Assembly: GCA_951406725.2 (NCBI GenBank)
Contig: OX597831.1
Location: 67,270,001 to 67,334,000, forward strand
Origin: Octopus vulgaris
Lineage: Eukaryota
DNA: 64,000 nucleotides
Direction: 5' to 3'
Part shown: positions 8,646 through 59,142 of the stretch, one piece after another
Layout of the letters: each line of letters starts with the position of its first letter
How positions within the stretch are numbered: the first letter of the stretch is position 1
Notes under the pieces: model-generated
What the model was told of the DNA's origin: nothing
Database searches by the model: none
What the model saw: only the letters and a program-made list of their open reading frames with translations
Position numbers and translations under genes: made by a program

Positions 8646-8654
8646 ATTTATATA

Positions 8655-8928
8655 AATAAGAGGAATAGCCACCAAGGTGGATTGCTAATATGCTAGAAGA
8701 AGACGCCAAATCATCTTACCACGAAGAATATGTTCTCAAAAATATAAGCGAGCAAGACAAATAAATACAAAATAGGACAATTAACTTCATACCTTAAGAT
8801 TTCACTATTAATGATCTTGGCCGCTTACATTCTGGCGTTTGCTAAAATTTTTGAGAACATATGTGGCAAGACGATTTCGCGTCTTCTAACATATTAGGAA
8901 TCCACCTTGGTGGCTATTCCTCTTAATT
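8655..8928. repeat. Inverted-repeat element in TA/TG microsatellite
   Basis: Arms ~8655-8743 and ~8847-8928; same family as 48241-48406 and similar to 37450-37590, upstream of the GIY-YIG ORF. Confidence 0.7.
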
Positions 8929-9028
8929 ATGTGTAATATAATTCAAGGTCTTCGGAGATTTTTAAAGTATGCTAGGCCACTGGTTTAAATTGACATTAAT
9001 TAATTTCTACCCTCATTATTTTACTTAA

Positions 9029-11782: not shown

Positions 11783-12200
11783 GGATCCTTTCGGTTTGAA
11801 CGGCAGTTTTTAACATAATTTCTAGGTAACTAAAAAATTTTAAACTTCGTATAGTAGAAGAATGTTTTTATAAAACATCTTTTTCTCTTGGCTTTATTGA
11901 GAAAATTCTATAGTTTATAAGATATTTGTTGTTTTTTTCTTCAATTTCTGCAATTTCAACCAATCACTGACGTCTATTGAGGTAAAAAAAAACATTCTGT
12001 GCCGTATGAATATGTCCCTCGTTTAAGAAACAGATTGGGTTTATTTACATTTGTGAAGAAAAAAAGATACCCTTCCCCCACCCCTAACCCTAACCCTAAA
12101 ACAGATTGAAATGCAATAGATCGATACTAGGGTCATAATTATGGGTGACAATTTCATATGACACCGCTAGAAAAAACTGCCGTTCAAACCGAAAAGATCC
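11783..12200. mobile_element. MITE with GG..CC TIRs and 8-bp TSD (Merlin-like)
   Basis: TIR GGATC(C/T)TTTCGGTTTGAACGGCAGTTTT; TSD AAGATAAG at 11775-11782 and 12201-12208; internal (CCCTAA)3. Confidence 0.85.
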
Positions 12201-13433: not shown

Positions 13434-13667
13434 GGAAAGTTTACGAAAATAAACAAAAGACGAAGACAGGTGGCGTACAAAACAAACAGATGTATTAGTA
13501 TTGCGCTCAGGAATAGAAAAAGTCTTTTACGTTTCGAGCCTACGCTCTTCTACAGAAAGGGACACAGAAAAAACAAGGAGAGAAAAAAAGGAGGGAAAAA
13601 AGGAGAAAAAAAAGGGGAGAAAAAACAAGGAGAGAAAAAATGTGTGTAGTAGCTAACGATCTATCAT
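13431..13667 (-). mobile_element. TA-embedded hammerhead mini-element, family C (ribozyme 13524-13559)
   Basis: Minus strand reads CTTT-CTGTAGA-A-GAGC-gtag-GCTC-GAAA-CGTA-AAAG; six copies in the window. Confidence 0.75.
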
Positions 13668-13891: not shown

Positions 13892-15056
13892 GTTTTCCGC
13901 GGTAGCGTGGGTTGGACGGTTCGACCGGGGTCTGGGAAGCCAGGGGCTGCACCAGGCTCCAGTCTGATCTGGCAGTATTTCTACAGCTGGATGCCCTTCC
14001 TAACGCCAACCACTCCGCGAGTGTAGTGGGTGCTTTTTACGTGCCACCAGCACAGGTACCAGAGGAGTCTGGCAGCGGCCACGATCGGTTGGTGCTTTTA
14101 ACGTGCCACCGGCACGGAAGCCAGTCAAGGCGGCGCTGGCATCGGCCACGTTCGGATGGTGCCTTTTACGTCCCACCGGCACAGAAGCCAGTCGAGGCGG
14201 CGCTGGCATCGACCACGTTCGGATGGTGCTTTTTATGTGCTTCCGGCACAGGTATCACAACTACTATTTCCATTGATATTTATTTCGATGTTCATGTACT
14301 TGACTCAATAGGTCTCCTCAAGCACAGCGGGATGTACTGAAATCCAAGGTACTTTGAATGGGCAGGGGCTATGCGAAACTGGTACAGGAAGCAGCCCGGG
14401 TCATTGCAGTCACAGCATATCTCCAGAGATCACGGTCCTTCGTCATTGCCTCTGTGAGGCCCAACGCTCTGAGGTCATGCTTGACTACCTCATCCCATGT
14501 CTTCCTGGGTCTACCTCTCCCCCTAATACCTTCAACTGTTTGGGAGCAGCACTTCTTCATACATCTCTCCTCATCCATCCGCAGTACATGACCATACCAT
14601 CGCAAGCGTCGCTCTTGCACACCACATCTGATGCTTCTTATGTCCATCATTTCTCTCAGGGTGCTTACACTCTGTCGTGCGCACACACTGACATTACACA
14701 TCCAGCGGATCATGCTAACTTCATTTCTTTCAAGTCTACGCATGTCCTCTGCAGTCACAGCCCATGTTTCACTATCGTGAAGCATGGCAGTTCGCACACA
14801 TGCATCATACAATCTACCTTTCACTCTGAGCGAGAGACCCTTTGTCGCCAGTAGGGGTAGGATCTTTCTAAACTTTGCCAAGGCTATTCGTATTCTAGTG
14901 GTAACACTCTCTGAGCATCCACCTCCACTACTAACTTGGTCACCCAGGTAGCGGAAACTATCAATTACTTCTAGTTTCTCCTCCTGGAGTGTGATGGAAT
15001 CTGTTTTCTGAGTGTTTGTGGTGTCTATTGTCCCTGTGCATCTGCCGCACATGAAA
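13861..15056 (-). mobile_element. 5'-truncated RTE-clade LINE (RT C-terminus, 3'UTR, (GAT)n tail)
   Basis: ORF 14369-15052 has FRYLG, SETW, RRLRWYGHVLRM and GRGRPRKTW motifs; (CAT)n at 13861-13890; ~65-bp tandem units in the UTR. Confidence 0.92.
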
Positions 15057-16286
15057 GCTATATATAGATTAATGTTCTTAAAATTTAAATCGACATCTTT
15101 GTCTATATATCTACCTTCTCTATAATGTTATCAATTGATATGAAAATTATGTATTAATGGAAAACCTCTATAAATGGCTGATGATTGGTCAACATTTTAA
15201 TCGACATCCTTAGCTCAGTACACATACAATAGTCACCATATGTTTTAAATGAAAAGATACTCCTCACGAAACAAGAATCTTTGGCAACTTCATTCAGGTC
15301 TTCATGCAACTGGTGACGTATTAACATTTTAGTTTCGACGTTTCATCGCCTGTTTTACTCATTAATCAGAGAGCAGTAATCTTCCACCCATTTTAGCTAT
15401 TTACGTTAAAGTCAAACAATTTTCTCTCCTGTAATACTTTCAAATCCCGCTCATACTAAGATTAGTGAGAAATTTACTGATGTCGTCTGTTTCTACCAGT
15501 TTGTAAACATGTATGTGGATCTAGTCTTCATTTACGTCTGACACATTATATTTGGGCTCACATGTAACATTCAAATGAGACTTGAACTAAAAAAAAACAC
15601 AAACACTTAACTTATGTTGTATACAACTGAGTCGTTCTCATCCAGTTTTTCTTAATGCATGGCACCCAGTAGTTGAACGGAGCGCAAAATTGCTTTTCTT
15701 CTTTCTACCAGGCTAATTTCAAAACCAATTTTTTAACAACGCAAATTATTCAACTGACTTAGTAAAACCAATAAAATATATATAAGCACATTCTCGTTAT
15801 ACATTATACATATCTAACGTATAATGTATAATCATTATTATCTAAACTTATTTTATATAGTATATAACTGTACTCACATATTATATCCTGTCTAATTACT
15901 ATCAAATTATTGTATCTGGAAGAGGTCTATTTTCTGTTGGTATGTAAGAAATAAAGAAAAAAATTGTATATATATATAGCCTCAGTTAATATTTTTTTAC
16001 TGGAATTAGTCAGAAACCATGATCTAGGAACTAAATTAGATGGTAAACGTTTTTAATTTTCATTCCTTCCGAGAATAGATCCCTAATTAGTGGTTTGCGT
16101 TTTCTACTGCTCTTTCTAGCACAAGGCTTTCCTATTTGGATGCCTCTTAAGGTGTTTTAATGTACACGAGATTTTTATGTGAATAATATATAGTCTATTG
16201 ACTAATTTTTTTCTTTTTTGCTAGGCCACTGGTAATAACAATTTCTATGATTCTTATTACCCTAATATTATTTATATATATATACA

Positions 16287-22198: not shown

Positions 22199-22797
22199 TA
22201 TCTATCTATCTATATATATATATATATACTTTATTTAAAAGCAGCAGAAATTTAACAAAACCTGTTACTTGAAGTTTCACGAGTAACAGCTTTTGTTAAA
22301 TTTCTGCTGCTTTTAAATAAAGCATATTACTCTACCTCTGGTATTTGAGTACTCTTTTTTCCACCTTGTTTCACATTTATGTGTTTACTCCGGTATATAT
22401 ATATATCTTTCTCTTTCCTTTTAACTATGTTCTATCGCAGCGTGGAAAGTGTTTATAGGCCATTTAAAAATACACAAAAACCGTTAGATTTACTTCAAGC
22501 ACACAATTTTGTCATTTAACAGGTCGCGGTTTCAAAGCGACGAAAATATTTTGACAAATTAAATTTACACCTTCCACGTTGCATTTGATTTTGTTTCAGC
22601 ACACAGTCTCAGATCATGTCACCTGCTATGCAAGTACATCACCGTAATATTTTCTATCGTATTGCCTTAAATTACCTATTGAAGAGGATACTAATTAGCT
22701 GAGATACCGTAAATAATTAAATGCTATATACATAGCTGCAGACATGGCTGTGTGGTTAAGAAGCTCACTTTGCAACACGTGGTTTTGAGTTCAACCA

Positions 22798-23925
22798 CTA
22801 AAAATACAGTTTCGTCATATAAATATGTGGGTTCCACAGCGGGGAATTTTAAGGCCAGGTTCAACAATCACACCTTGAGCTTCAGGCACTGGGATACAAG
22901 AAAAACGACCAAATTATCCAGTCATATATGGTCCTTAAAATATAAAGGTATCATTTGAAATATCCATTGGAAGACCTTAGCAAAGTGTAAGCCTTACGCT
23001 AACGGCAGTGGAAAGTGCGGTCTTTGTGATATGGAAAGATGGCTCATCTGGAAAAGCAGCTTACACCCTGCTACATGTCTAAATTCAAGAACCGAACTTT
23101 TTGGATCATGTCCACATATGGCTAAATATTTGTTACGTTTTTGGTCCCCACCAAGATCACAGATGGAACCTTCTTTCTATATTGTGTCCACGTACAAGCA
23201 TTTTATCTCTCTATATTTTTATATTTTTTATATATATATTTTTTTTACATATTATTTACATATTTGTATTTTACTTTTCACCCTGCATTTTTCTTGGGAA
23301 TGTGTGTATATAGACGTGTAAATGAACATTTTTGTGCGCGTATGGGTATATATACGTGTGTGTGTGTGTGCGTGCTTGCGGGTATGTATATATGTACATG
23401 TATATATACATGTGAATGATTGCATATATATGTGGGTGTACATGCATGTGTCTCACGCGAGTGTGAGTGAGCATATGCATATATAGCATGTGCGTATTTA
23501 GACGTGTATTTGAATATAATTGTGCGCATATGGGTATGTGCACGTGTGTGTGTGGCGCACGCGTGTGTGCGGATATGTATATGTCTACATGTATGGTTGC
23601 ATATATATGTTCATATATAGGCATATGTGTGGGTGTGCATGTATGTGTTTCCCACGGGTGTGAGGGAGCATATGCATATAGGCACATGTACGTGGGTGTG
23701 CGTGCGTGTGTGTGTGTATGTACATGCGCGCATACGCGATTTCTATGAGCATTTTTACTTTTTACTTTTTTACTTTCTCCCTTCGGTTTTTCCCACTTAT
23801 TTAACGCTCATTCTAATCGCTCTTTTGTCTTAGTAACGATCAATCACGTAGAAATTTCCCTTTATTTGACGGCCATTTTCATAGCATTTTATGATTGCCT
23901 TGATAACTGACGAGATGCCGGAGCA
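22798..23925 (+). mobile_element. Penelope-like element 3' fragment (GIY-YIG endonuclease, 3' region, start of pLTR hammerhead)
   Basis: KYVGSTAGNFKARFNNHTLSFRH..TKLSSHIW, CDMERWLI..LNSRTELFGSCPH; homologous to 38021-38400; ends in GATAA-CTGACGA-GATGCCG at 23902-23920. Confidence 0.8.
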
Positions 23926-23964
23926 GCCTTCAAATGACGCCACCCCGCTGGCTAAGCGAGCAGG

Positions 23965-24042
<78 letters not shown>

Positions 24043-26039: not shown

Positions 26040-26890
26040 AAGAACCGCTCACAGCCTCTAACAATATCAGAGACCTGGGTGTAATTGTTGATGACGATCT
26101 CAGTTGGAGTGCACACATCAACAAGAAGGTCGATATAGCTCGTAGGATGAGTTCCTGGATCTTAAGAACTTTCCGGTCCAGCGAACAAGGTGTCATCATA
26201 CCACTTTTTTCCTCCTTTGTACGGCCACACCTTGAATTCTGCTGCCCACTGTGGTCTCCTCACACAAGACAAAACATCTCCAGAATTGAGTCACCCCAGA
26301 GGGCACTCACTAAACGAATTGAAGGCATGGCTGCTCTCGATTATTGGGATCGCCTTAAAGCCTTGAAACTTTACTCCCCCAGCGTCGCCGTGAGCGGTAC
26401 ATCATTTGTACGATGTGGAAAATATACCGCCAACTTTGCCCAAACGACCTAAACATTAGCTTCAAGGTTCATCCAAGACTTGGACCACGGGCTATACTTC
26501 CCCTGCCCAATTCAAGATCACAACATACATGTACACTGCAACATAATTTCCTTTCCTCAACAGGCCCTGCTCTATTTAACATTGTCCCGAGGGAGATCAA
26601 AGAGGAAAAGGATCCCATCAACTTTAAACAGAGTCTGGATAGATTCCTTCAAAGAATACCAGATAAGCCAGCCATAATTGGATACAACTCACTCAACAAG
26701 AACTCACTACTTGAACAAAACTGGATACAACTCACCCAACAAGAACTCACTACTTGAACAAAACTTGACTTAAACAAGACTTGACTTAAACAGGATTCGA
26801 ATAATCCTATCAGGTGGTGCTATTAAGTTAGACATGGCCTGGACCAATCTTTGGTCGAAACATATCTAAGTTTTATCTAAGTTTTATATC
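26040..26890 (+). mobile_element. 5'-truncated CR1-clade LINE 3' end
   Basis: IRDLGVIVDDDLSWSAHI, FVRPHLEFCCPLWSP, LDYWDRLKAL; one frameshift; tandem ATCTAAGTTTT tail. Confidence 0.9.
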
Positions 26891-26973: not shown

Positions 26974-27019
<46 letters not shown>

Positions 27020-27021
<2 letters not shown>

Positions 27022-27583
27022 ATATGTTACATTACTCGGTAGTCAAGATAAAACTCTGAGTTTCAGATGCCGAAGTGGAACTATTTGAAAACGTTATGAA
27101 AATATACCGTTAAAAATGAAGGGAAATTACTCTGTTATAACTCTGCTTTGCCTGCGTACTTATACATCGCTCGCATTTTTCGTCATAAAAATTATATAAA
27201 AATACATAAAAATATATAAAAATATATAAATATATATAAAATCTTCTTGGGACATAACACAGAAAGCATGTTCTATCCGTTTTCTTTAGAAAACGGATAG
27301 AACATGCTTTCTGTGTTATGTCCCAAGAAGATTTTATATATTTTTATATATTTTTATATATTTTTATGTATTTTTATATAATTTTTATGACGAAAAATGC
27401 GAGCGATGTATAAGTACGCAGGCAAAGCAGAGTTATAACAGAGTAATTTCCCTTCATTTTTAACGGTATTTTTTCATAACGTTTTCAAATAGCCAGATAA
27501 CCGAAGAGATGGTGTTGTGGATTTCCACTTCGGCATCTGAAACTCAGAGTTTTATCTTGACTACCGAGTAATGTAACATATTG
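27020..27583. repeat. ~565-bp near-perfect palindrome (inverted Penelope pLTR-like pair)
   Basis: Centre at ~27286; arms match except a ~30-nt segment (27493-27523) present only in the right arm. Confidence 0.92.
27495..27557 (+). ncRNA. Type I hammerhead ribozyme (U4C core variant)
   Basis: AGATAA-CCGAAGA-GATG..CATC-t-GAAA-CTCAGAG-TT-TTATCT. Confidence 0.68.
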
Positions 27584-27653
27584 TATAGATAAATTTCCTC
27601 TATTTACATAATATTGAGGTCTCTTTCTTTCTTTTGTTATCTTACCGTTTTAT

Positions 27654-27719
<66 letters not shown>

Positions 27720-27995
27720 GCGATAAATGAAAAAATGCATTGTGAATAAACAACGACAGATAAAAAAGCATATACATATAGTGAGGGAACAACCTGAAGG
27801 GTGACAGACACAGAGGGTCCCAAATATTCCCTCAGTATACGCATGGGTTTTTTTATGTCCGTTATTTATTTATAATACATTTTTCATTTATCGTATATAT
27901 ATCCTTTTATTCTTTTGACTGCGGCCAAGATGGAGGACCACCTTTAGTATACACACACATACGCTTATATATGTATATATGTATGTATGTATATA

Positions 27996-29656: not shown

Positions 29657-29942
29657 CACCGTCACCGTGACCGACCAGGCCAGCAGATGTTGCTACAAAT
29701 CGCTGGTCACAATGCGCTTCGCACTGTTTTAGTCTTCAAATGACGCCATCCCGCAGGCTAAGCGAGCAGGCCTACAGAAGAAAGAGTGAGAGAAAGTTGT
29801 GGCGAAAGAGTACAGTAGGGATCGCCACCCTCCCTGTCGAAGCCTCGTGGAGCTGTAGGTGTTTTTGCTCAATAAACACTCACATCTCCTGATCTGGGAA
29901 TCGAAACCGCCATCCACTGCCTTAACCACTGGACCATTGCGC

Positions 29943-32172: not shown

Positions 32173-32578
32173 GGATCTTTTCGGTTTGAACGGCAGTTTT
32201 TAACATAATTTCTAGGTAACTAAAAAAATTTTAACTTCGTATACTGGTAGAATGTGTTGAAAAAACATCTTTTTCTCTTGGCTTTATTGAGAAACTTCTA
32301 TAGTTTGTAAGATATTTGTTGTTGTTTTTTCTTCAATTTCTGCAATTTCAACCAATCATTGACGTCCATTGAGGTAAAAAAAACATTCTGTGCCGTATGA
32401 ATATGTCCCTTGTCCCAGATTGGGTTTATTTACATTTGTGAAGAAAAAAAGATACCCTTCCCCCACCCTAACCCTAAAAGAGATTGAAATGCAATAGATC
32501 GATACTAGGGTCATAATTATGGGTGACAATTTCATATGACACCGCTAGAAAAAAACTGCCGTTCAACCGAAAAGATCC
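32173..32578. mobile_element. Second copy of the Merlin-like MITE
   Basis: Same TIRs as 11783-12200; TSD CGATTGGA at 32165-32172 and 32579-32586. Confidence 0.88.
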
Positions 32579-32964: not shown

Positions 32965-33450
32965 TGAACCGATTTCATTACGCAATAAGGAAAAGCAAAA
33001 GAAAACTCCAGCTAAGTCACAAGTATTTACTCACAATCAACTTTTATTTCCTGTCATACAAGTGTTCAATGCAACACGGGCAACAGAAGTGCGGTAAGAG
33101 AATTCCTCCTAGACGCGTATCAGCATATCAAAAGCAAGTTCATTATGGAACTAAAGAATAAATTTGCTTTGCTTGAGACGATTCCAGAAGATATTGACAT
33201 AGAAGGAAAATGGAAAATCATCGATAAAGCATTCAACCAGACAAAGAAATACTCAGTGGATCGTGACATGCTGATACGCGTCAGAGAGGAATTTTCTTAT
33301 CGCATTGATGTTGCTCGTGCTGCAGATGGGGGTGGCCACATTTGAACACTTGTAAGACAGAAAATAAAAGTTGATTGTGAGTAAATACTTGTGACTTAGC
33401 TGGAGTTTTCTATTGCTTTTCCTTATTAAAATATTGCGTAATGAAATCAG
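32965..33450. mobile_element. Tc1/mariner relic with ~100-bp inverted arms
   Basis: Arms ~32965-33071 and ~33339-33450; internal peptide DMLIRVREEFSYRIDVARAADGGGHI resembles an IS630-Tc1-mariner transposase C-terminus. Confidence 0.6.
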
Positions 33451-36133: not shown

Positions 36134-36526
36134 ATTAAGTGTAGGAAGAAATGGAGCTGAACGAAGATTTAACAAAATTCCTTTTTATTATCTTCTACAT
36201 ATGTTTCGAAGGCTGCAAAGTCCCTAATTCGGATTGAATAAGGAGTCCATTTTGCAGCCTTCTCTTCAGGAAAATCCAGGAACTTAATTCTCCAACAAAA
36301 TGCACAGCAAGCTTTTCGACAAACGCTCACGAGGAGCCCATGAAATAAATGGCCCTTGTTGTGCATTTTGTTGGAGAATTAAGTTCCTGGATTTTCTGAA
36401 GAGAAGGCTGCAAAATGGACTCCTTATTCAATCCGAATTAGGGACTTTGCAGCCTTCGAAACATATGTAGAAGATAATAAAAAGGAATTTTGTTAAATCT
36501 TCGTTCAGCTCCATTTCTTCCTACAC

Positions 36527-36531
<5 letters not shown>
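36134..36531. repeat. ~172-bp inverted repeat carrying two opposed hammerhead ribozymes
   Basis: Arms 36134-36306 and 36360-36531, near-perfect; ribozymes at 36190-36275 (-) and 36391-36475 (+). Confidence 0.9.
36190..36275 (-). ncRNA. Type I hammerhead ribozyme with 12-bp stem II
   Basis: ATTTTC-CTGAAGA-GAAGGCTGCAAA..TTTGCAGCCTTC-GAAA-CATATG-TA-GAAGAT. Confidence 0.85.
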
Positions 36532-37127: not shown

Positions 37128-37245
<118 letters not shown>

Positions 37246-37404
37246 TGTGTGTGGGCATGCGGGTACGTATGTATATAGACGTATTTTACTCAGTGCTTCT
37301 ACACATATTCCTGTATTTATATATATATATATACACATGGGGTTTCTTTCAGTTTCCATCTAACAAATCCATAGATATATATGTGTATATACATACATAC
37401 ATAG

Positions 37405-37445
<41 letters not shown>

Positions 37446-37799
37446 AAATTTAGAGGATTGACCACTAAAAGTAGACAGCCTGTATGCTAGATATAGACGT
37501 CAAAATCGCCATTTTCCACGGAGAATGTGTTCTCAAGAAAAAATTCAGCAAAAAACCAAAGCGTAAAAATAAGCAAGACAAATGAAGATATACGAAATAA
37601 AAAAAACCATTACCTAAGTACTAATTAGTTTCAGTTGTTTACAATTTTCGTATATGAATGCATAAACATCTGCAAGATTTTCAGCATAGTCTGTCGTTTA
37701 CGAAACACAATTTCTATAACTAGAAATCCAGCATTGTATAAAGTACCACAAATTACATTCATGTGTATCTTTCAAATACTTTCACTACTCACCCGAGGT

Positions 37800-39240
37800 G
37801 ACCTTCAACATAGGCAAGTATTTCTTAGCACTGATAGATAGACATTTTCCAGTCAACCATACCTACAGGAAGCTCTTCAATAAACACAACTTTAAAAAAA
37901 ATCAGTTTCAGCTCAACTACCAATTTTAAAAATATAATCGCACACAACACACAAAAACCACAATACGAAAACAGCTGTTCATGCAGGAATAAAAAATTAT
38001 GCCCGCTAAATGGAGCTTGCATGTCCGAGACCATCATCTACGAAGCTACCGTGGACTCTATACACACTAAAGACATGGTTTCGACGAAGAAATACGTGGG
38101 CCTTACATACGGTAATTTCAAGACCAGGTTCAATAATCACACCTTGAGCTTCAGACACTGCGACAAAAGGAAAACGACAAAATTATCCAGTTATATATGG
38201 TCATTAAAAGATAAAGGTGTCAGTTACAACATCCATTGGAAGATTTTAGCTAAATGTAAGCCCTACACCAACGGCAGCGGAAAGTGCAGTCTATGCGACA
38301 TGGAAAGATGGCTCATCTGGAAAAGCAGCTTAGACCCCCGCTACATGTCTGAACTCAAGGACAGAACTTTTCGGATCATGCCGACACGTGGCTAAATTTT
38401 TTTTACGTTTTTGGTCCCCCCCAAGACTACAGATAGAACTTGCTTTCTATATTATGTCTATGCAACAAAGTTTTTTTTATCTCATTATACTTTTTACCTT
38501 TATTTATATTTTTTATATATATATTTCTTACATATCATAGAGAATTTGGTTTATAGATATATTCTTTACACATAATTTTTTTCTGTACTCTACCTTCCAC
38601 CCTGCATTTTCCGTGCCTATATAAACGTGTATATGGAATACTTATTGCGCGCGTGTGGATGTGTACGTGTGTGCGGGTAGGTGTGTATATAGAGGTGAGC
38701 GTGTGTGTGGGCATGCGAGTACGTATGTATATAGACGTATTTTACTCAGTGTTTTTACACATTTTCCTGTATTGTTTTTAGACGTATGTATAATCCTTTT
38801 TGTGCGTGCGTGTGTGTGCGCGTATATAGACGTATGCGGGTGTGTGCGTATATGGGCGTGTATGTGTGTGCGTGCATAAGGGTGTGTGCGTATATAAACG
38901 TGGTTTACTCTTTGTATACTCCCTTATGCCTTTTTTCTGTATTGTTACCCTTAACCCCTTTTTTTCTTGTGCTTGTGCGTATGTAGACGTATGTATGAAC
39001 TTTTACGGTGCGCGCGTGTGTGTGTGAGGGTTTGTATGTATATGCATATACATTTGGCGAAGGATGCGAGTGAAGATGTGTACGTTTTTCTAGTGAGGAT
39101 GGATGAATGTATGCGTACGCACGTGGGTGTCCGGACGCACATGTGTAGGTATGAACAGACGCGCTTACGCAAATACTATGAACTTTTTACCCCCTTATCT
39201 TAATTAGCGGTCATTCGAATAACTCTTTTGCCTAAAAGAC
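37800..39240 (+). mobile_element. Penelope-like element fragment (Cys-rich linker, GIY-YIG endonuclease, 3' region)
   Basis: CSCRNKKLCPLNGACMSETIIYEATV..KYVGLTYGNFKTRFNNH..KCSLCDMERW; frameshift near the C-terminus. Confidence 0.85.
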
Positions 39241-45660: not shown

Positions 45661-45999
45661 ATATATATATATATATATCTTTTTTTCTGCAGTTTCAGCT
45701 CAGAGCTGTGGCCATGCTGGGGCACCGCCATTTTGCAACATTGATATCACTGAGAGCCTCCTCTAATATGTGGCACTTAGAGAAAAAATGGAGTTTGATG
45801 TAGCTACCCTCATTTGCACCTCTTGCCGTGAGGTAAGTTCATCTGGGACTCTCGACAGGGAAAGGTTCAGCCTTGATTTAAAAACGCCTACATCTACTTT
45901 GTGCAGGCTCCTCAGGCTCTTTGAGAGACTATTAAAAAGTCGTGGGCCTCTGAAACCCAGAATGTTATATATATATATGTGTGTGTGTGTGTATGTATG

Positions 46000-46285: not shown

Positions 46286-47149
46286 TACCGTCACGAGTGG
46301 TAAGCGAATTATCAGTCGTACGTGCAATTAATAAAATATGTACATACAATATTAGATATGTACATATGTACACAAGCCTGTAGTAGATTGTGACTATTCG
46401 GTGGTACAGAAATATTTTTGACTTCTATTTTTAGCGATATAGCTGCTCATATATCGTCTTTGTGCACATATGTACATATCTAATATTGTATGTATATATT
46501 TTATTAATTTGCCTGTACGGCTGATAATTCGCTATATATAATTAAAGAGGAATGTAAAAATACATTACGAAGGATATATCGCAAATAATTCATAATTATT
46601 TATGAATATATCGATAGCCAAACATGCAATCATAAATTTCATAAAAGGAGTGCGTATAATTATGAATAAATCCCAATTATAACTGGGAGGGTTGCAAAAA
46701 CCCTTACATATCTACAAATAGCAGTCAAAACCACTATGAAAACTCATATTCTATCTCTTCACAATAAAGCCGTCGGCGGGTGACATGACATAAAATTCAC
46801 AACTTTAAAATAAAAAGGTTAATTCTCTATTGCCATTTCGAAGTTAAGAACCTAACGGTTTCACTCTTCTCTTCGGGAGAATATTTTTGCAGATACAAAT
46901 TGACACACAAAAAAAAAAAAAACATACCTTGGGGCTTACATGTGTACCGACCGGCAAGAATGATATGTCAACCTCTATCTACACATTCAGATTCTGAATT
47001 CCAACTTATATACCGGATATGAATGAAAAAATTAAATAATTAAAGAGGAATGTAAAATACCTTACGAGGGATATATCATAAAACAATTTATAATTATTTA
47101 TGAATATATCAATGGCCAAACGTATGTATGTATATATGTATATTATATA

Positions 47150-48190: not shown

Positions 48191-48246
<56 letters not shown>

Positions 48247-48507
48247 GTGTATATTTACGGAAACCACTAGGTGGATAACCATACGCTAGAAGATCACATA
48301 TAACTACATTCTGGAGAACATTTTTTCTTTGTAGTTAGATCGCATGTGATCTTCTTCTAGCGTATGGTTATCCACCTGGTGGTTATCCCTAAATATACAC
48401 ATGTATTGAAATTTTTTCTGATTTTTCAGATTTTCTATACGCTAGGCTACTGGTTTTAAATTGATATTAATTAAATCAATATTCAATTTATCTCCCTCAT
48501 TATTTAA

Positions 48508-53811: not shown

Positions 53812-54056
53812 TTATATATATGGGTACAGAACATCACTGACAGTAAACAACATGAAATACGAAAATAAATGAGCTAAATATGCAAACAACGAGACAAGTA
53901 ACACAAAAAAAGACCCTTCATCCTCGAAATGAGGAGTAGAAAGACAACTGTGTTATTTGTTCTGTGTCCCATTTTTTCTCTCGTTGTTTGCGTACTTAAT
54001 TCATTTGTTTTCGTATTTCTTGTTTACTGTTGGTGACGTTTTGTACCCATATATGC

Positions 54057-54136: not shown

Positions 54137-54336
54137 AGTCGCCATGATAGATCGTTAGCCACTACACAGATTTTCTCTCTCCGTGTTTCTCTCCTTGTTT
54201 TTTCTGTGTCCCTTTCTGTAGAAGAGCGTAGGCTCGAAACGTAAAAGACTTTTTCTATTCCTGAGCGTTATACTAATACATCTGTTTGTTTTGTACACCA
54301 CCTGTCTTCGTCTTTTGTTTTTTTCGTAAACTCTCC

Positions 54337-54379: not shown

Positions 54380-55005
54380 CTCTATTTATGAGATGAGGAA
54401 TTGTATACATTATTCACATTATTTATATTTGACGTATATTTGTTCTCATCTTATTTGTTCTTAACACAACGTTTCGGCTGATATACCCTCCAGGCTTCAT
54501 CAGATGTTTTGGGGAAATTTCGAACCTGGGTTCTCATTCCTAAGGTATTTATTTGATGTTGTTATTATTACTATTATTAAGGTCACTGCCTGGAATCGAA
54601 CTAGGAATCTTCTGGAGGATATATCAGCCGAAACGTTGTGTTAACAACAAAAAAGATGAGGACAAATATCCGTCAAATAGAAATAATGTAAATAATGTAA
54701 ATAATGTAAATAATGTACATAATTCCTCATCTCTTAAATATAGAAATGTATTATCTAATCGGTACGGAACCGACATTAGACTTCAACGGAGACATATAGA
54801 GAAACTCCATCAAAAACTAAAGATTCCGAGTTCGATTCCAGACAGGGACCTTAATTATAATAATAACAACATCAAAAAAATACCTTAGGAATGAGAAACC
54901 AGGTTCGAAATTTCCCCAAGACACCTGATGAAGGCTGGAGGGTATATCAGCCGAAACGTTGTGAAGGTGAGGACAAATATCCGTCAAACATAAATAATGT
55001 AAATA

Positions 55006-56385: not shown

Positions 56386-56679
56386 GCATGCATGCCTGCA
56401 TGCATAAATACATATATATTCATTATATATATATATGCACATACACATGCATAAACGTTTATATTTGTACATACTATGAATGTATGTTTGTACTTTTGAA
56501 TGTATATACGGATACGCCACCCGTGTATGAGTAACCGGAGTTGAATCACTCCGAAAATAGATGTCTGTGATAGTCTCTATGGCATTATCTCTTAAAGTAT
56601 TACATATAATCCTACAACAACAAGCCATAGATAAAATATAAAGGAATCATTCATTTGAAATTTAAAGAATGTCTCTTAC

Positions 56680-58396
56680 CGTTTCCGTATGCTAGATCAA
56701 TTTTCTTTTGTCTGTTTTCCATGTGGGGCAAAATATTATTTTCCCAACCTGTGGAATTAGTCGCAGGCAGCTTGTCTCGATCTCCAAACTCTTTTTTAAT
56801 TAGAGTTATAGGTGGAAGCAGAAAATTGTCATTGGTGTGTATATTTTTGATAACATTAAATGAAATTGTTCGTCTTTTGTTTTCCTCATCTACGTTGTTT
56901 TCATCATTATTGCGTGATGAGACTGTCGTATTTGTTTTGTTATTAACGTTGCTTTTGTTGCTCTGAGAATAGCAGCTGTTGTTGAAATTTATGCTGTTAG
57001 CGGTGTTGTTGATATCTATAATGTTGTTTGTTGATGGAGTAGGAGTTGTGGTCGTGGCTGTGGTCGTTGAGGTAGTGCTACTGATGTGATATGTTTTGCT
57101 ATCTTTGACATCGATCGTATGTGTTGTAATTATACTAATGGTGTTGTTATTGCTAGTAGAAATATTTTTTAAAACACCAGCAGTAGTTGCTGTGGTAGGG
57201 AATGAAGTAGTAGCATTGGTAACAGTGGTGTCATCTTGTGAAGTCTTACTGAAAGCCAACAACGATTCACGATGTGTGTCGTCTGCTAATATTTTAACGC
57301 CATTTAATACCGTCGGTTCCTGTGATTGCTGCTGTTGTTGACTCTGACAGTTCTCCTGATGGTGATAATGTCGATGTTGTTGTTCACGATGAAGATGGTG
57401 GTGTTGATGATGATGTTTGTGGTGACGATGTCTCTCAAGAAACTGGATGCTGGTATTAACTTCTTCTTTCACATGTATTGGAATTTCCTCTTTGGCGTAA
57501 CTGTTTTCATTTCTTTCCCCCTTTTTGTATTTTACTTCTGGTTCTGTTATTTGTTCTTCTTTTTCTTTTTCTTCCTCCTCCTCTTCCTCTTCCTCTTCAT
57601 CATCCTCCTCTTCTTCTTCATCTTCTTCTTCATCTTCTTCTTCTTCTTCTCCCCCTCCTCCTCCCTCTCCTTCATTTTCTTCTGTTTCACCTTTATGGCT
57701 TTGCTTGCTTTCATCATCTCCGTCTGTATTCTCGCTACCCTCATCATCGTTATCATTGTCGTTACCATCGAAATCGTTCGCTAAATCTAATTGGTCCTCA
57801 GCATCGGATTGAGATAAAACTTCGACATCTTGTTTGTGTTCTTTTTCTTCATGCTCTTCCCCTTCTCTACTCGAGAGACTAGTCTCTCGATTATAACTGT
57901 CATTTGAATATAAATAATGGAATTTCTGCTGGTGATACAAGAGCTCTTCCGACTGTTTATGAAGCTCATAGATTTGTTGAAACTTTTGATGATGATTTTG
58001 CACTTGGTCATCGTGATGGTGATTCCTATGTTGTTCTTGCAGTTTTTGTTGTTGCTGCTGTAGTTGTTGCTGGTGATGTAGTTGTGGTTGTAGATATAGC
58101 TGTTGCTGGTAATGACTGTGATGGAATTGCTGTTGTTGCTGTTGCTGCCGTCGACGGTATTGTAGTGGCTGTTGGTGTTGCTGCTGTAGATGCCGTACTT
58201 CACGATGATAAAACTTATGTTGCTGACTAACTGAAAGACTTTTAGACCATAGCGTCGGTCTATTAACACTGACTGCATCTGTATAAACAAGCGTTCGTCT
58301 GTCTGAACGTAGTGGTCCCTTCTGTGTTGACAATTTGTCTGACGTCTTCTGACATGTCCGCCTCAAGATATTTTCTATGGAAAATGGCGTCAGCAT
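56680..58396 (-). CDS. First coding exon of an eh1-motif transcriptional repressor, probably NK/ANTP-class homeobox (e.g. NK3/bagpipe- or Lbx-like); DNA-binding exon not in window
   Basis: 1.7-kb open frame; in-frame TAA two codons before the ATG; N-terminal MLTPFSIENIL matches eh1 (FSIxxIL); poly-Q/H, poly-E/D and T/N tracts; phase-1 donor AACG|GTAAGA at 56680/56679. Confidence 0.8.
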
Positions 58397-59142
58397 TTTT
58401 TATTCTTAGTTGATTTTCTTCTTAACACAAGAAAATTTGGCTTGCCTTTTCCAAGTTAACCGCAGATGGTTAATGAATTGGCAAATTGTAAATAGTCTTT
58501 GATGTAGTATAAGTAAAAAAAAACAACAAAAAAAAAACAGCTCCCTGTTTTGAAAGGCTTTTTGAAACGTAAGGGTTAACGGTAGTCGAAGAAACCACTT
58601 ATTGACTAACGTTGACGTAGTATCGCATCATCATCCTTCTCTTTCTTTCTTTCTTTCTTTCTTTCTTTTTTTTTTTTTACCTTTCTTTTAACTTGATTCA
58701 GAAAGTAAATGCTCTGACATGCAATTCAGTTAATGTTTTGCTGTGTAGTTGTGCAGTTATGTAACTTCATACATGTATACTTTTATGAATATATATGTAC
58801 TGTGTAGCCATATAGCTGTATAGGTATCTAGATGGAAGAATGTAGGAAACGGGGCAACTGGAATCGGTAAGTAGTTGATCTTTCTTCATAAAACATTCCA
58901 GGAATCTGTAGAGCAATGTGTTTTGGTGGCAAATTCCCATCTGTAAGTTACTTCTCACTCCCCTTCCTTTTCACTCCCTCTTATCCTTTCTTACTTTCGC
59001 TCTCTCCATGTATGTATATGAGTGTACGTGTGTGTTTGTATATGTGTGAGTTTATGTATATGTATGTAGGTATGTATGTATGTATGTATGTATGTATGTG
59101 TGTGTGTGTATACTCACATAATCAGATAGATTGACAAACAGC

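Follow-up and report, generated by a model that had tools for sequence, protein, structure and literature searches.

At positions 27020–27583 of a 64-kb window of the Octopus vulgaris genome (the whole stretch of DNA analysed here, 64,000 nucleotides) lies a near-perfect palindrome, which a preliminary description took to be the inverted pLTR of a neighbouring Penelope-like element (PLE) with a GIY-YIG endonuclease fragment. The question raised by this locus is whether its two halves belong to that neighbour, form a mobile unit of their own, are an artefact, or are the footprint of a separate insertion. The near-perfect symmetry and the loop of about 2 nt stood up on re-analysis, while the length was corrected from 565 to 564 bp. 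Two mirror-image arms meet head-to-head at a TT loop (27286–27287), the right arm (27288–27583, 296 nt, plus strand) representing the putative sense 3′ end of a Hydra-clade PLE, about the whole of its 3′ UTR, and the left arm (27020–27285, 266 nt, minus strand) an inverted copy of the same 3′ end with a 30-nt deletion. Both arms are 5′-truncated at the same base, at the TT loop.

The arms differ by 2 substitutions in 266 aligned bases (264/266 identical; 99.2%), both of them T/A (27103/27470 and 27231/27342), and by a single 30-nt indel, in which right-arm positions 27493–27522 are absent from the left arm. The deletion point lies between 27080 and 27081; the missing bases comprise core 1 of a hammerhead motif together with the 5′ strand of each of its stems I and II, and inspection by eye found no microhomology at the deletion ends. 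The right arm stops 32 nt past the predicted hammerhead cut, the ends of both arms agreeing in this, and the mirror symmetry ends at the 3′ end of the element, leaving the flanks unmirrored. Searches with 166 relative proteins (tblastn) gave no coding match below E 0.01 in the palindrome and no GIY-YIG domain. By blastn the palindrome is present as one copy only in the 64-kb window, with no tandem units; a 24-nt match at 45945–45968 was rejected (E=0.37).

Rfam searches returned no hammerhead, either among the best 150 of 252 matches for the whole window at E≤1 (nearly all microsatellite or miRNA noise) or for 27400–27620 at E≤10 (three irrelevant matches), and custom descriptors with shuffle controls were therefore used. 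These found six hammerhead motifs in the window, compared with a mean of 0.03 in 100 shuffled windows. Within the right arm, descriptor and fold together delimit a type I minimal hammerhead motif (27495–27557, plus strand) with stem I (27495–27500/27552–27557), core 1 CCGAAGA (27501–27507), stem II (27508–27511/27534–27537, plus an inner helix), a GAAA box (27539–27542), a palindromic stem III, ACTC-A-GAGT, with a one-base loop (27542–27550), and a predicted cut after U27551 (GUU). As previously reported, CCGAAGA occurs in the right arm only; what remains of the motif in the left arm is its 3′ half (27046–27080, minus strand: GAAA box, stem III and cleavage triplet), a remnant that, judged from its sequence, cannot form a ribozyme alone. 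Measured against the consensus hammerhead (C3 U4 G5 A6 N7 G8 A9; G12 A13 A14 A15.1; U16.1 H17; stem II directly adjoining), the right-arm motif departs at two points, a U4C change in core 1 and an extra U (27538) between C11.1 and G12.

Comparison by eye with the 26 Hydra rows of the hammerhead table in PMC8557442 showed that the 14 bases at 27538–27551 are identical to the core 2–stem III–cut site segment of Penelope-3_HM, and that 14 of the 26 rows have TGAA as second core. The two departures are not found there: all 26 rows have U4, as does copy A (the neighbouring GIY-YIG element described below), and in none is an extra U before GAAA left without its counterpart base after core 1. By eye, the end of the element lies 36, 46 and 47 nt past the cut in three Hydra consensus sequences, compared with 32 nt in the palindrome. 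A hammerhead near the 3′ end, a trait of the Hydra clade, is thus present at 27495–27557 with two core deviations, and we infer that it was inherited from the 3′ UTR of the parent element.

Folding of the isolated motif gave an MFE z-score of only −1.2, with pairing probabilities of 0.24–0.85 for stem I and 0.95–0.96 for stem II; the extra U27538 is predicted to pair with A9 (probability 0.89), and an alternative fold that would sequester core 1 by CUUCGG is minor (0.03). When the whole palindrome is folded (−432 kcal/mol), every hammerhead stem has a pairing probability of 0. U4C lowers hammerhead activity in vitro (PMC3088659), and minimal hammerheads did not cleave as monomers (PMC4209133). 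The right-arm hammerhead is accordingly predicted by these models to be weak or silent, owing to U4C, the extra U, the one-base loop III that would need a sense-strand partner, and complete capture in a 266-bp duplex if the whole palindrome were transcribed.

Two broken GIY-YIG elements of Hydra type lie on the same strand of the window, copy A (22698–23924) and a longer copy B (37762–39233), the latter absent from the preliminary description. Coding matches extend over 22698–23213 in copy A and 37762–38429 in copy B, and the two are 83% identical in the ORF (327/394), which in both ends after the GIY-YIG domain. Pfam GIY-YIG scores were 21.5 (E=3e-4) for copy A and 16.6 (E=0.0098) for copy B, below the curated cut-off of 22.6. 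Copy B carries CSCRNKKLC, a CxCX5C linker, ahead of the endonuclease; copy A is truncated before the linker, and the palindrome itself has none. From the alignment and translations, CxxC and CxH were seen by eye around the conserved E and N in both copies, with a frameshift in copy B between CxxC-E and N/CxH across which the motifs read on, and no CCHH motif was seen in the alignment. Since the diagnostics of the Hydra clade are CxCX5C, CxxC and CxH around E and N, and the lack of CCHH (PMC8557442 section 11), the sequences of A and B would place them in this clade. All three elements, palindrome, A and B, are truncated downstream of the RT core. HMMER recovered 5148 relatives at E≤0.001; ten top or long ones that were looked up had no informative name (one cluster had a named member, ‘hypothetical protein’), a word-indexed search returned no longer relatives of copy B, and three of the HMMER relatives gave nothing useful in Pfam.

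Copy A has a long TG-rich 3′ UTR that reaches a hammerhead core, CTGACGA (23907–23913), and the 5′ strand of stem II before being cut off at about 23924 by another repeat (23925–23966 is 93% identical to 29731–29772). Copy B ends before the hammerhead. Upstream of copy B, 37243–37313 is a 94% direct copy of part of its 3′ UTR (38699–38769), possibly the remnant of a partial tandem.

The right arm is homologous to these copies in two blocks. Block 1 (27288–27391) corresponds to the end of the ORF and the start of the UTR, 27288–27387 aligning with 23154–23258 of copy A (79/111 columns) and 27288–27391 with 38424–38531 of copy B (80/110 columns). Block 2 (27435–27511), which takes in hammerhead core 1, aligns with 23843–23917 of copy A (56/78 columns) and is lacking in copy B because that copy ends before it; a match to copy B on the hammerhead side was discarded, since 255 of 500 shuffles did as well. 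None of 500 shuffles scored as high as any of the three alignments, and the blocks are collinear in the right arm and copy A at about 72% identity. Because block 1 is partly AT-rich, its first, non-repetitive 35 nt were tested alone: they matched copy B at 29/35 and copy A at 26/35, while the best of 300 shuffled 35-nt queries against the window reached 24/35. The first base of the right arm is also that of block 1 and corresponds to the point where the ORF of copies A and B stops; this, with the lack of any coding match in the palindrome, indicates that the right arm corresponds to approximately one 3′ UTR. The 3′ UTR of the palindrome is, however, about 540 nt shorter than those of A and B, the two blocks being 47 nt apart compared with about 585 nt in copy A.

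The preliminary description had already aligned 27444–27511 with copy A, and this alignment was confirmed (23852–23917, 50/69 columns; best in the window; blastn E=0.002; 0 of 150 dinucleotide shuffles), as was its observation that GATGCCG (23914–23920) is the reverse complement of CGGCATC (27531–27537). The segment 23852–23920 had been read as the end of the GIY-YIG fragment and proved instead to be the end of the copy A 3′ UTR, about 640 nt past the last coding match (23213). The proposed tie between a hammerhead and an endonuclease-coding PLE holds as homology, and the link itself was already published (PMC4209133; PMC8557442).

The insertion is bordered by TA-rich sequence, as read from the sequence. 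On the left, a (TA)n run (26979–27018) adjoins the palindrome with one G between; on the right, a one-sided 72-nt stretch starting TATAGATA (27584–27655, plus strand) adjoins the arm and is followed by a second (TA)n run (27656–27716). The 72-nt stretch, with no second copy in the masked window at E≤0.05, may be either host flank or a PLE-type tail, and it is longer than the usual PLE tail of 30–40 nt. As the ends sit in TA repeats, a target-site duplication is unreadable. Such TA-rich ends agree with the insertion of Hydra-clade PLEs into (TA)n, their preferred type of target (PMC8557442 section 11).

Taken together, the palindrome consists of two head-to-head 3′ ends of a hammerhead element related to copies A and B, and it is likely, with a probability that we put at roughly 0.84, that they represent one young, 5′-truncated PLE insertion of a sister family, fold-back copied and probably inert. 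It has the form of a PLE inverted pLTR, in which a 5′-truncated inverted copy is joined head-to-head at the 5′ end. [quoted passage not shown] The new DNA would then have folded back with a 2-nt loop to be copied in turn, so that both arms stop at one base, and the left arm may have lost its 30 nt during or after this copying. With equal arm ends and a loop of 2 nt, self-copying is a better account than priming on two independent occasions, and the 30-nt loss in the left arm implies that the full-length arm must have been the template. Head-to-head junction palindromes have been ascribed to self-priming, which would need an antisense RNA template (PMC3846280), and for this reason the chemistry of the fold-back step can be proposed in outline only.

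The palindrome and copy A could be conceived as one insertion, the former being the inverted pLTR of the latter (22.7–23.9 kb), given the two significant homology blocks, the placing of the right arm on the same strand only 3.1 kb away and the complementary stem II halves. Yet the palindrome diverges from copy A by about 28%, compared with 0.8% between its own arms; the UTR spacers differ more than tenfold in length, as given above; it is located 3′ of copy A, not at the 5′ end as expected of an inverted pLTR; and copy B, 11 kb away, fits the start of block 1 at least as well. The stretch between the two is also occupied by microsatellites, by a piece of a different hammerhead family and by a LINE-like fragment (which we presume to be a LINE, with no Pfam match), and the palindrome has TA-rich flanks of its own. 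It thus shows neither the near identity nor the adjacency to the element body expected of a pLTR of copy A, and this reading appears, from the sequences compared, to be largely refuted and retains only the slightest likelihood. What survives of the preliminary description is that a pLTR-type PLE 3′ end carrying a hammerhead is present, that an inverted and truncated copy adjoins it, and that it has homology to the nearby GIY-YIG element; the assignment to the local copy fell. Divergence, UTR length, distance and the palindrome’s own TA-rich ends point instead to a separate, much younger insertion of a sister family.

A different possibility is a mini-element of the retrozyme or MITE type: the palindrome would be a fold-back unit of Hydra PLE origin, not itself autonomous, that is copied as a whole by an autonomous protein. 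The palindrome indeed has no coding sequence and a short 3′ UTR, an origin from PLE pLTRs has been proposed for retrozymes (bioRxiv 10.64898/2026.07.22.740005), and sequence flanked by pLTRs can be acted on in trans by PLE proteins (PMC3846280). Such an element is nevertheless represented by one copy in 64 kb, has no tandem units and no Hydra-type coding sequence after either arm, and has lost the core from one arm, while a sister family would also explain the short UTR (by eye, about 205 nt separate the stop from the element end in Hydra-1_Obim); we regard it as unlikely, and nothing in the window shows the separate ‘ribozyme mini-element’ proposed earlier. Equally doubtful is the broader proposal of a self-contained ribozyme fold-back element, moved as a unit, whose read-through 266-bp duplex turns its own hammerhead off, with Hydra-type PLEs routinely leaving dsRNA-forming hairpins in this genome; if it were true, the hairpins would be possible small-RNA or A-to-I editing substrates. 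The mirror might also be an artefact in which one truncated PLE end was folded back in the course of sequencing, amplification or assembly: structures of this kind are troublesome for assemblies (PMC8557442 section 6), arm identity is 99.2% across a loop of 2 nt, and a template switch could have taken place in the microsatellites to the left and right. Against this, a clean 30-nt indel and two substitutions separate the arms, the mirror halts at the 3′ end of the element leaving the flanks unmirrored, and the window’s remaining inverted pairs show diverged arms or a spacer that does not pair, the pattern expected of genuine insertions that differ in age; an artefact is very unlikely.

Two more hammerhead-bearing inverted pairs are present in the window. 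At 36134–36531 there is a 398-bp head-to-head inverted pair with near-identical arms and an unpaired centre of about 50 nt, both arms carrying a consensus-core hammerhead (CTGAAGA, 12-bp stem II, GAAAC); it belongs to another PLE family and is better preserved than the palindrome at 27020–27583. At 54426–54988 an inverted copy and a partial tandem of a PLE end with the minimal hammerhead CTGATGA...GAAAC form a textbook pLTR arrangement. A further hammerhead with the U4C core CCGAAGA, from a different family, occurs at 46820–46885 (minus strand), and a dispersed family of short hammerhead-like 3′ fragments is represented at 13555, 16413, 20505 and 25312 (minus strand) and at 54216, 40816 and 50410 (plus strand), two with the consensus core CTGACGA and five in which the core is altered to CTGTAGA or CTGTTGA.

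Also set between microsatellites are inverted-repeat elements or imperfect palindromes at 8652–8930, 48243–48406, 37483–37539, 53823–54047, 32971–33448, 22229–22322 and 27718–27896, with no hammerhead found in these seven; one of them, 37483–37539, lies immediately before copy B and is matched by 8689–8742. Two copies (11783–12200 and 32173–32578; 89%) were noted of a MITE-like element, 420 bp long and with terminal inverted repeats of 29 bp. Pfam analysis of 75 of the 144 filtered ORFs yielded only an RT fragment of LINE type, at 771–1052 (RVT_1, E=7e-6); 14372–15127 (minus strand) and 26042–26757 presumably resemble LINE RT C-termini. Finally, a 582-codon open frame at 56654–58399 (minus strand), rich in runs of Q, E and H, starts with KMLTPFSIENIL, which we take to be an eh1-like repressor motif, and probably represents exon 1 of a homeobox-type gene of the host; the frame had no Pfam match, and six-frame translation showed no convincing homeobox motif and no homeobox exon in the window.

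Among described systems, the Hydra-clade PLEs (such as Penelope-3_HM, Penelope-13_HM and Hydra-1_Obim; Craig et al. 2021, PMC8557442) have in common with the palindrome a 3′-end hammerhead, U-GAAA, a palindromic stem III with a 1-nt loop, an element end a few tens of bases past the cut and (TA)n targets, and share the CxCX5C, CxxC and CxH motifs with its relatives A and B; they differ in that the palindrome is an insertion without an ORF. Penelope-13_HM has a 5′-attached inverted truncated copy, as here, while Hydra-1_Obim, an octopus member of the clade, differs by eye in stems and UTR (PMC8557442 supplement). The inverted-pLTR insertions of Adineta vaga Penelope elements likewise show a head-to-head pLTR, a palindromic junction and an optional one-sided tail, with a self-priming model; their pLTR, however, includes the first ORF codons and the units carry an ORF or captured DNA (PMC3846280), whereas the palindrome has two 3′-UTR arms only, cut at the same base.

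The right-arm motif resembles the minimal hammerheads of metazoan PLEs (Cervera and de la Pena 2014, PMC4209133), which are type I with a weak palindromic helix III needing a dimer and which occur in pLTRs and as pairs on opposite strands 100–700 bp apart; here one partner is without core 1, and the unpaired base lies 3′ of stem II, not 5′. Non-LTR retrozymes (bioRxiv 10.64898/2026.07.22.740005) are, like the palindrome, non-coding, PLE-derived and equipped with a type I hammerhead, but by definition their units are repeated directly in tandem and two or more consecutive ones carry a hammerhead, whereas the palindrome is a single inverted pair with one motif, having neither tandem direct units nor a complete hammerhead in each. 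Tails of PLEs have been explained by internal RT initiation, and hammerhead cleavage was dispensable in vitro (PMC11167929).

That inverted, truncated copies are common in PLE insertions, as the preliminary description had held, accords with the 5′-truncated inverted copies regarded as typical (PMC8557442 section 6). The palindrome is therefore an ordinary PLE insertion scar of an already described kind, and it points to a Hydra-clade family distinct from Hydra-1_Obim; the assignment to the clade would follow from the approximately 72% UTR similarity to A and B and from the style of the ribozyme, the ORF of the parent family having no part in it. Our literature search returned no paper on this particular family, which may already be catalogued in Repbase or Dfam, both outside the search. 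As a clean single example of a known PLE footprint, the locus would not surprise a PLE specialist. Its equal-length arms and 2-nt loop nevertheless fit fold-back self-priming, its one-sided 30-nt gap shows which arm was the template, and a genome-wide set of such junctions could test models of PLE second-strand synthesis.
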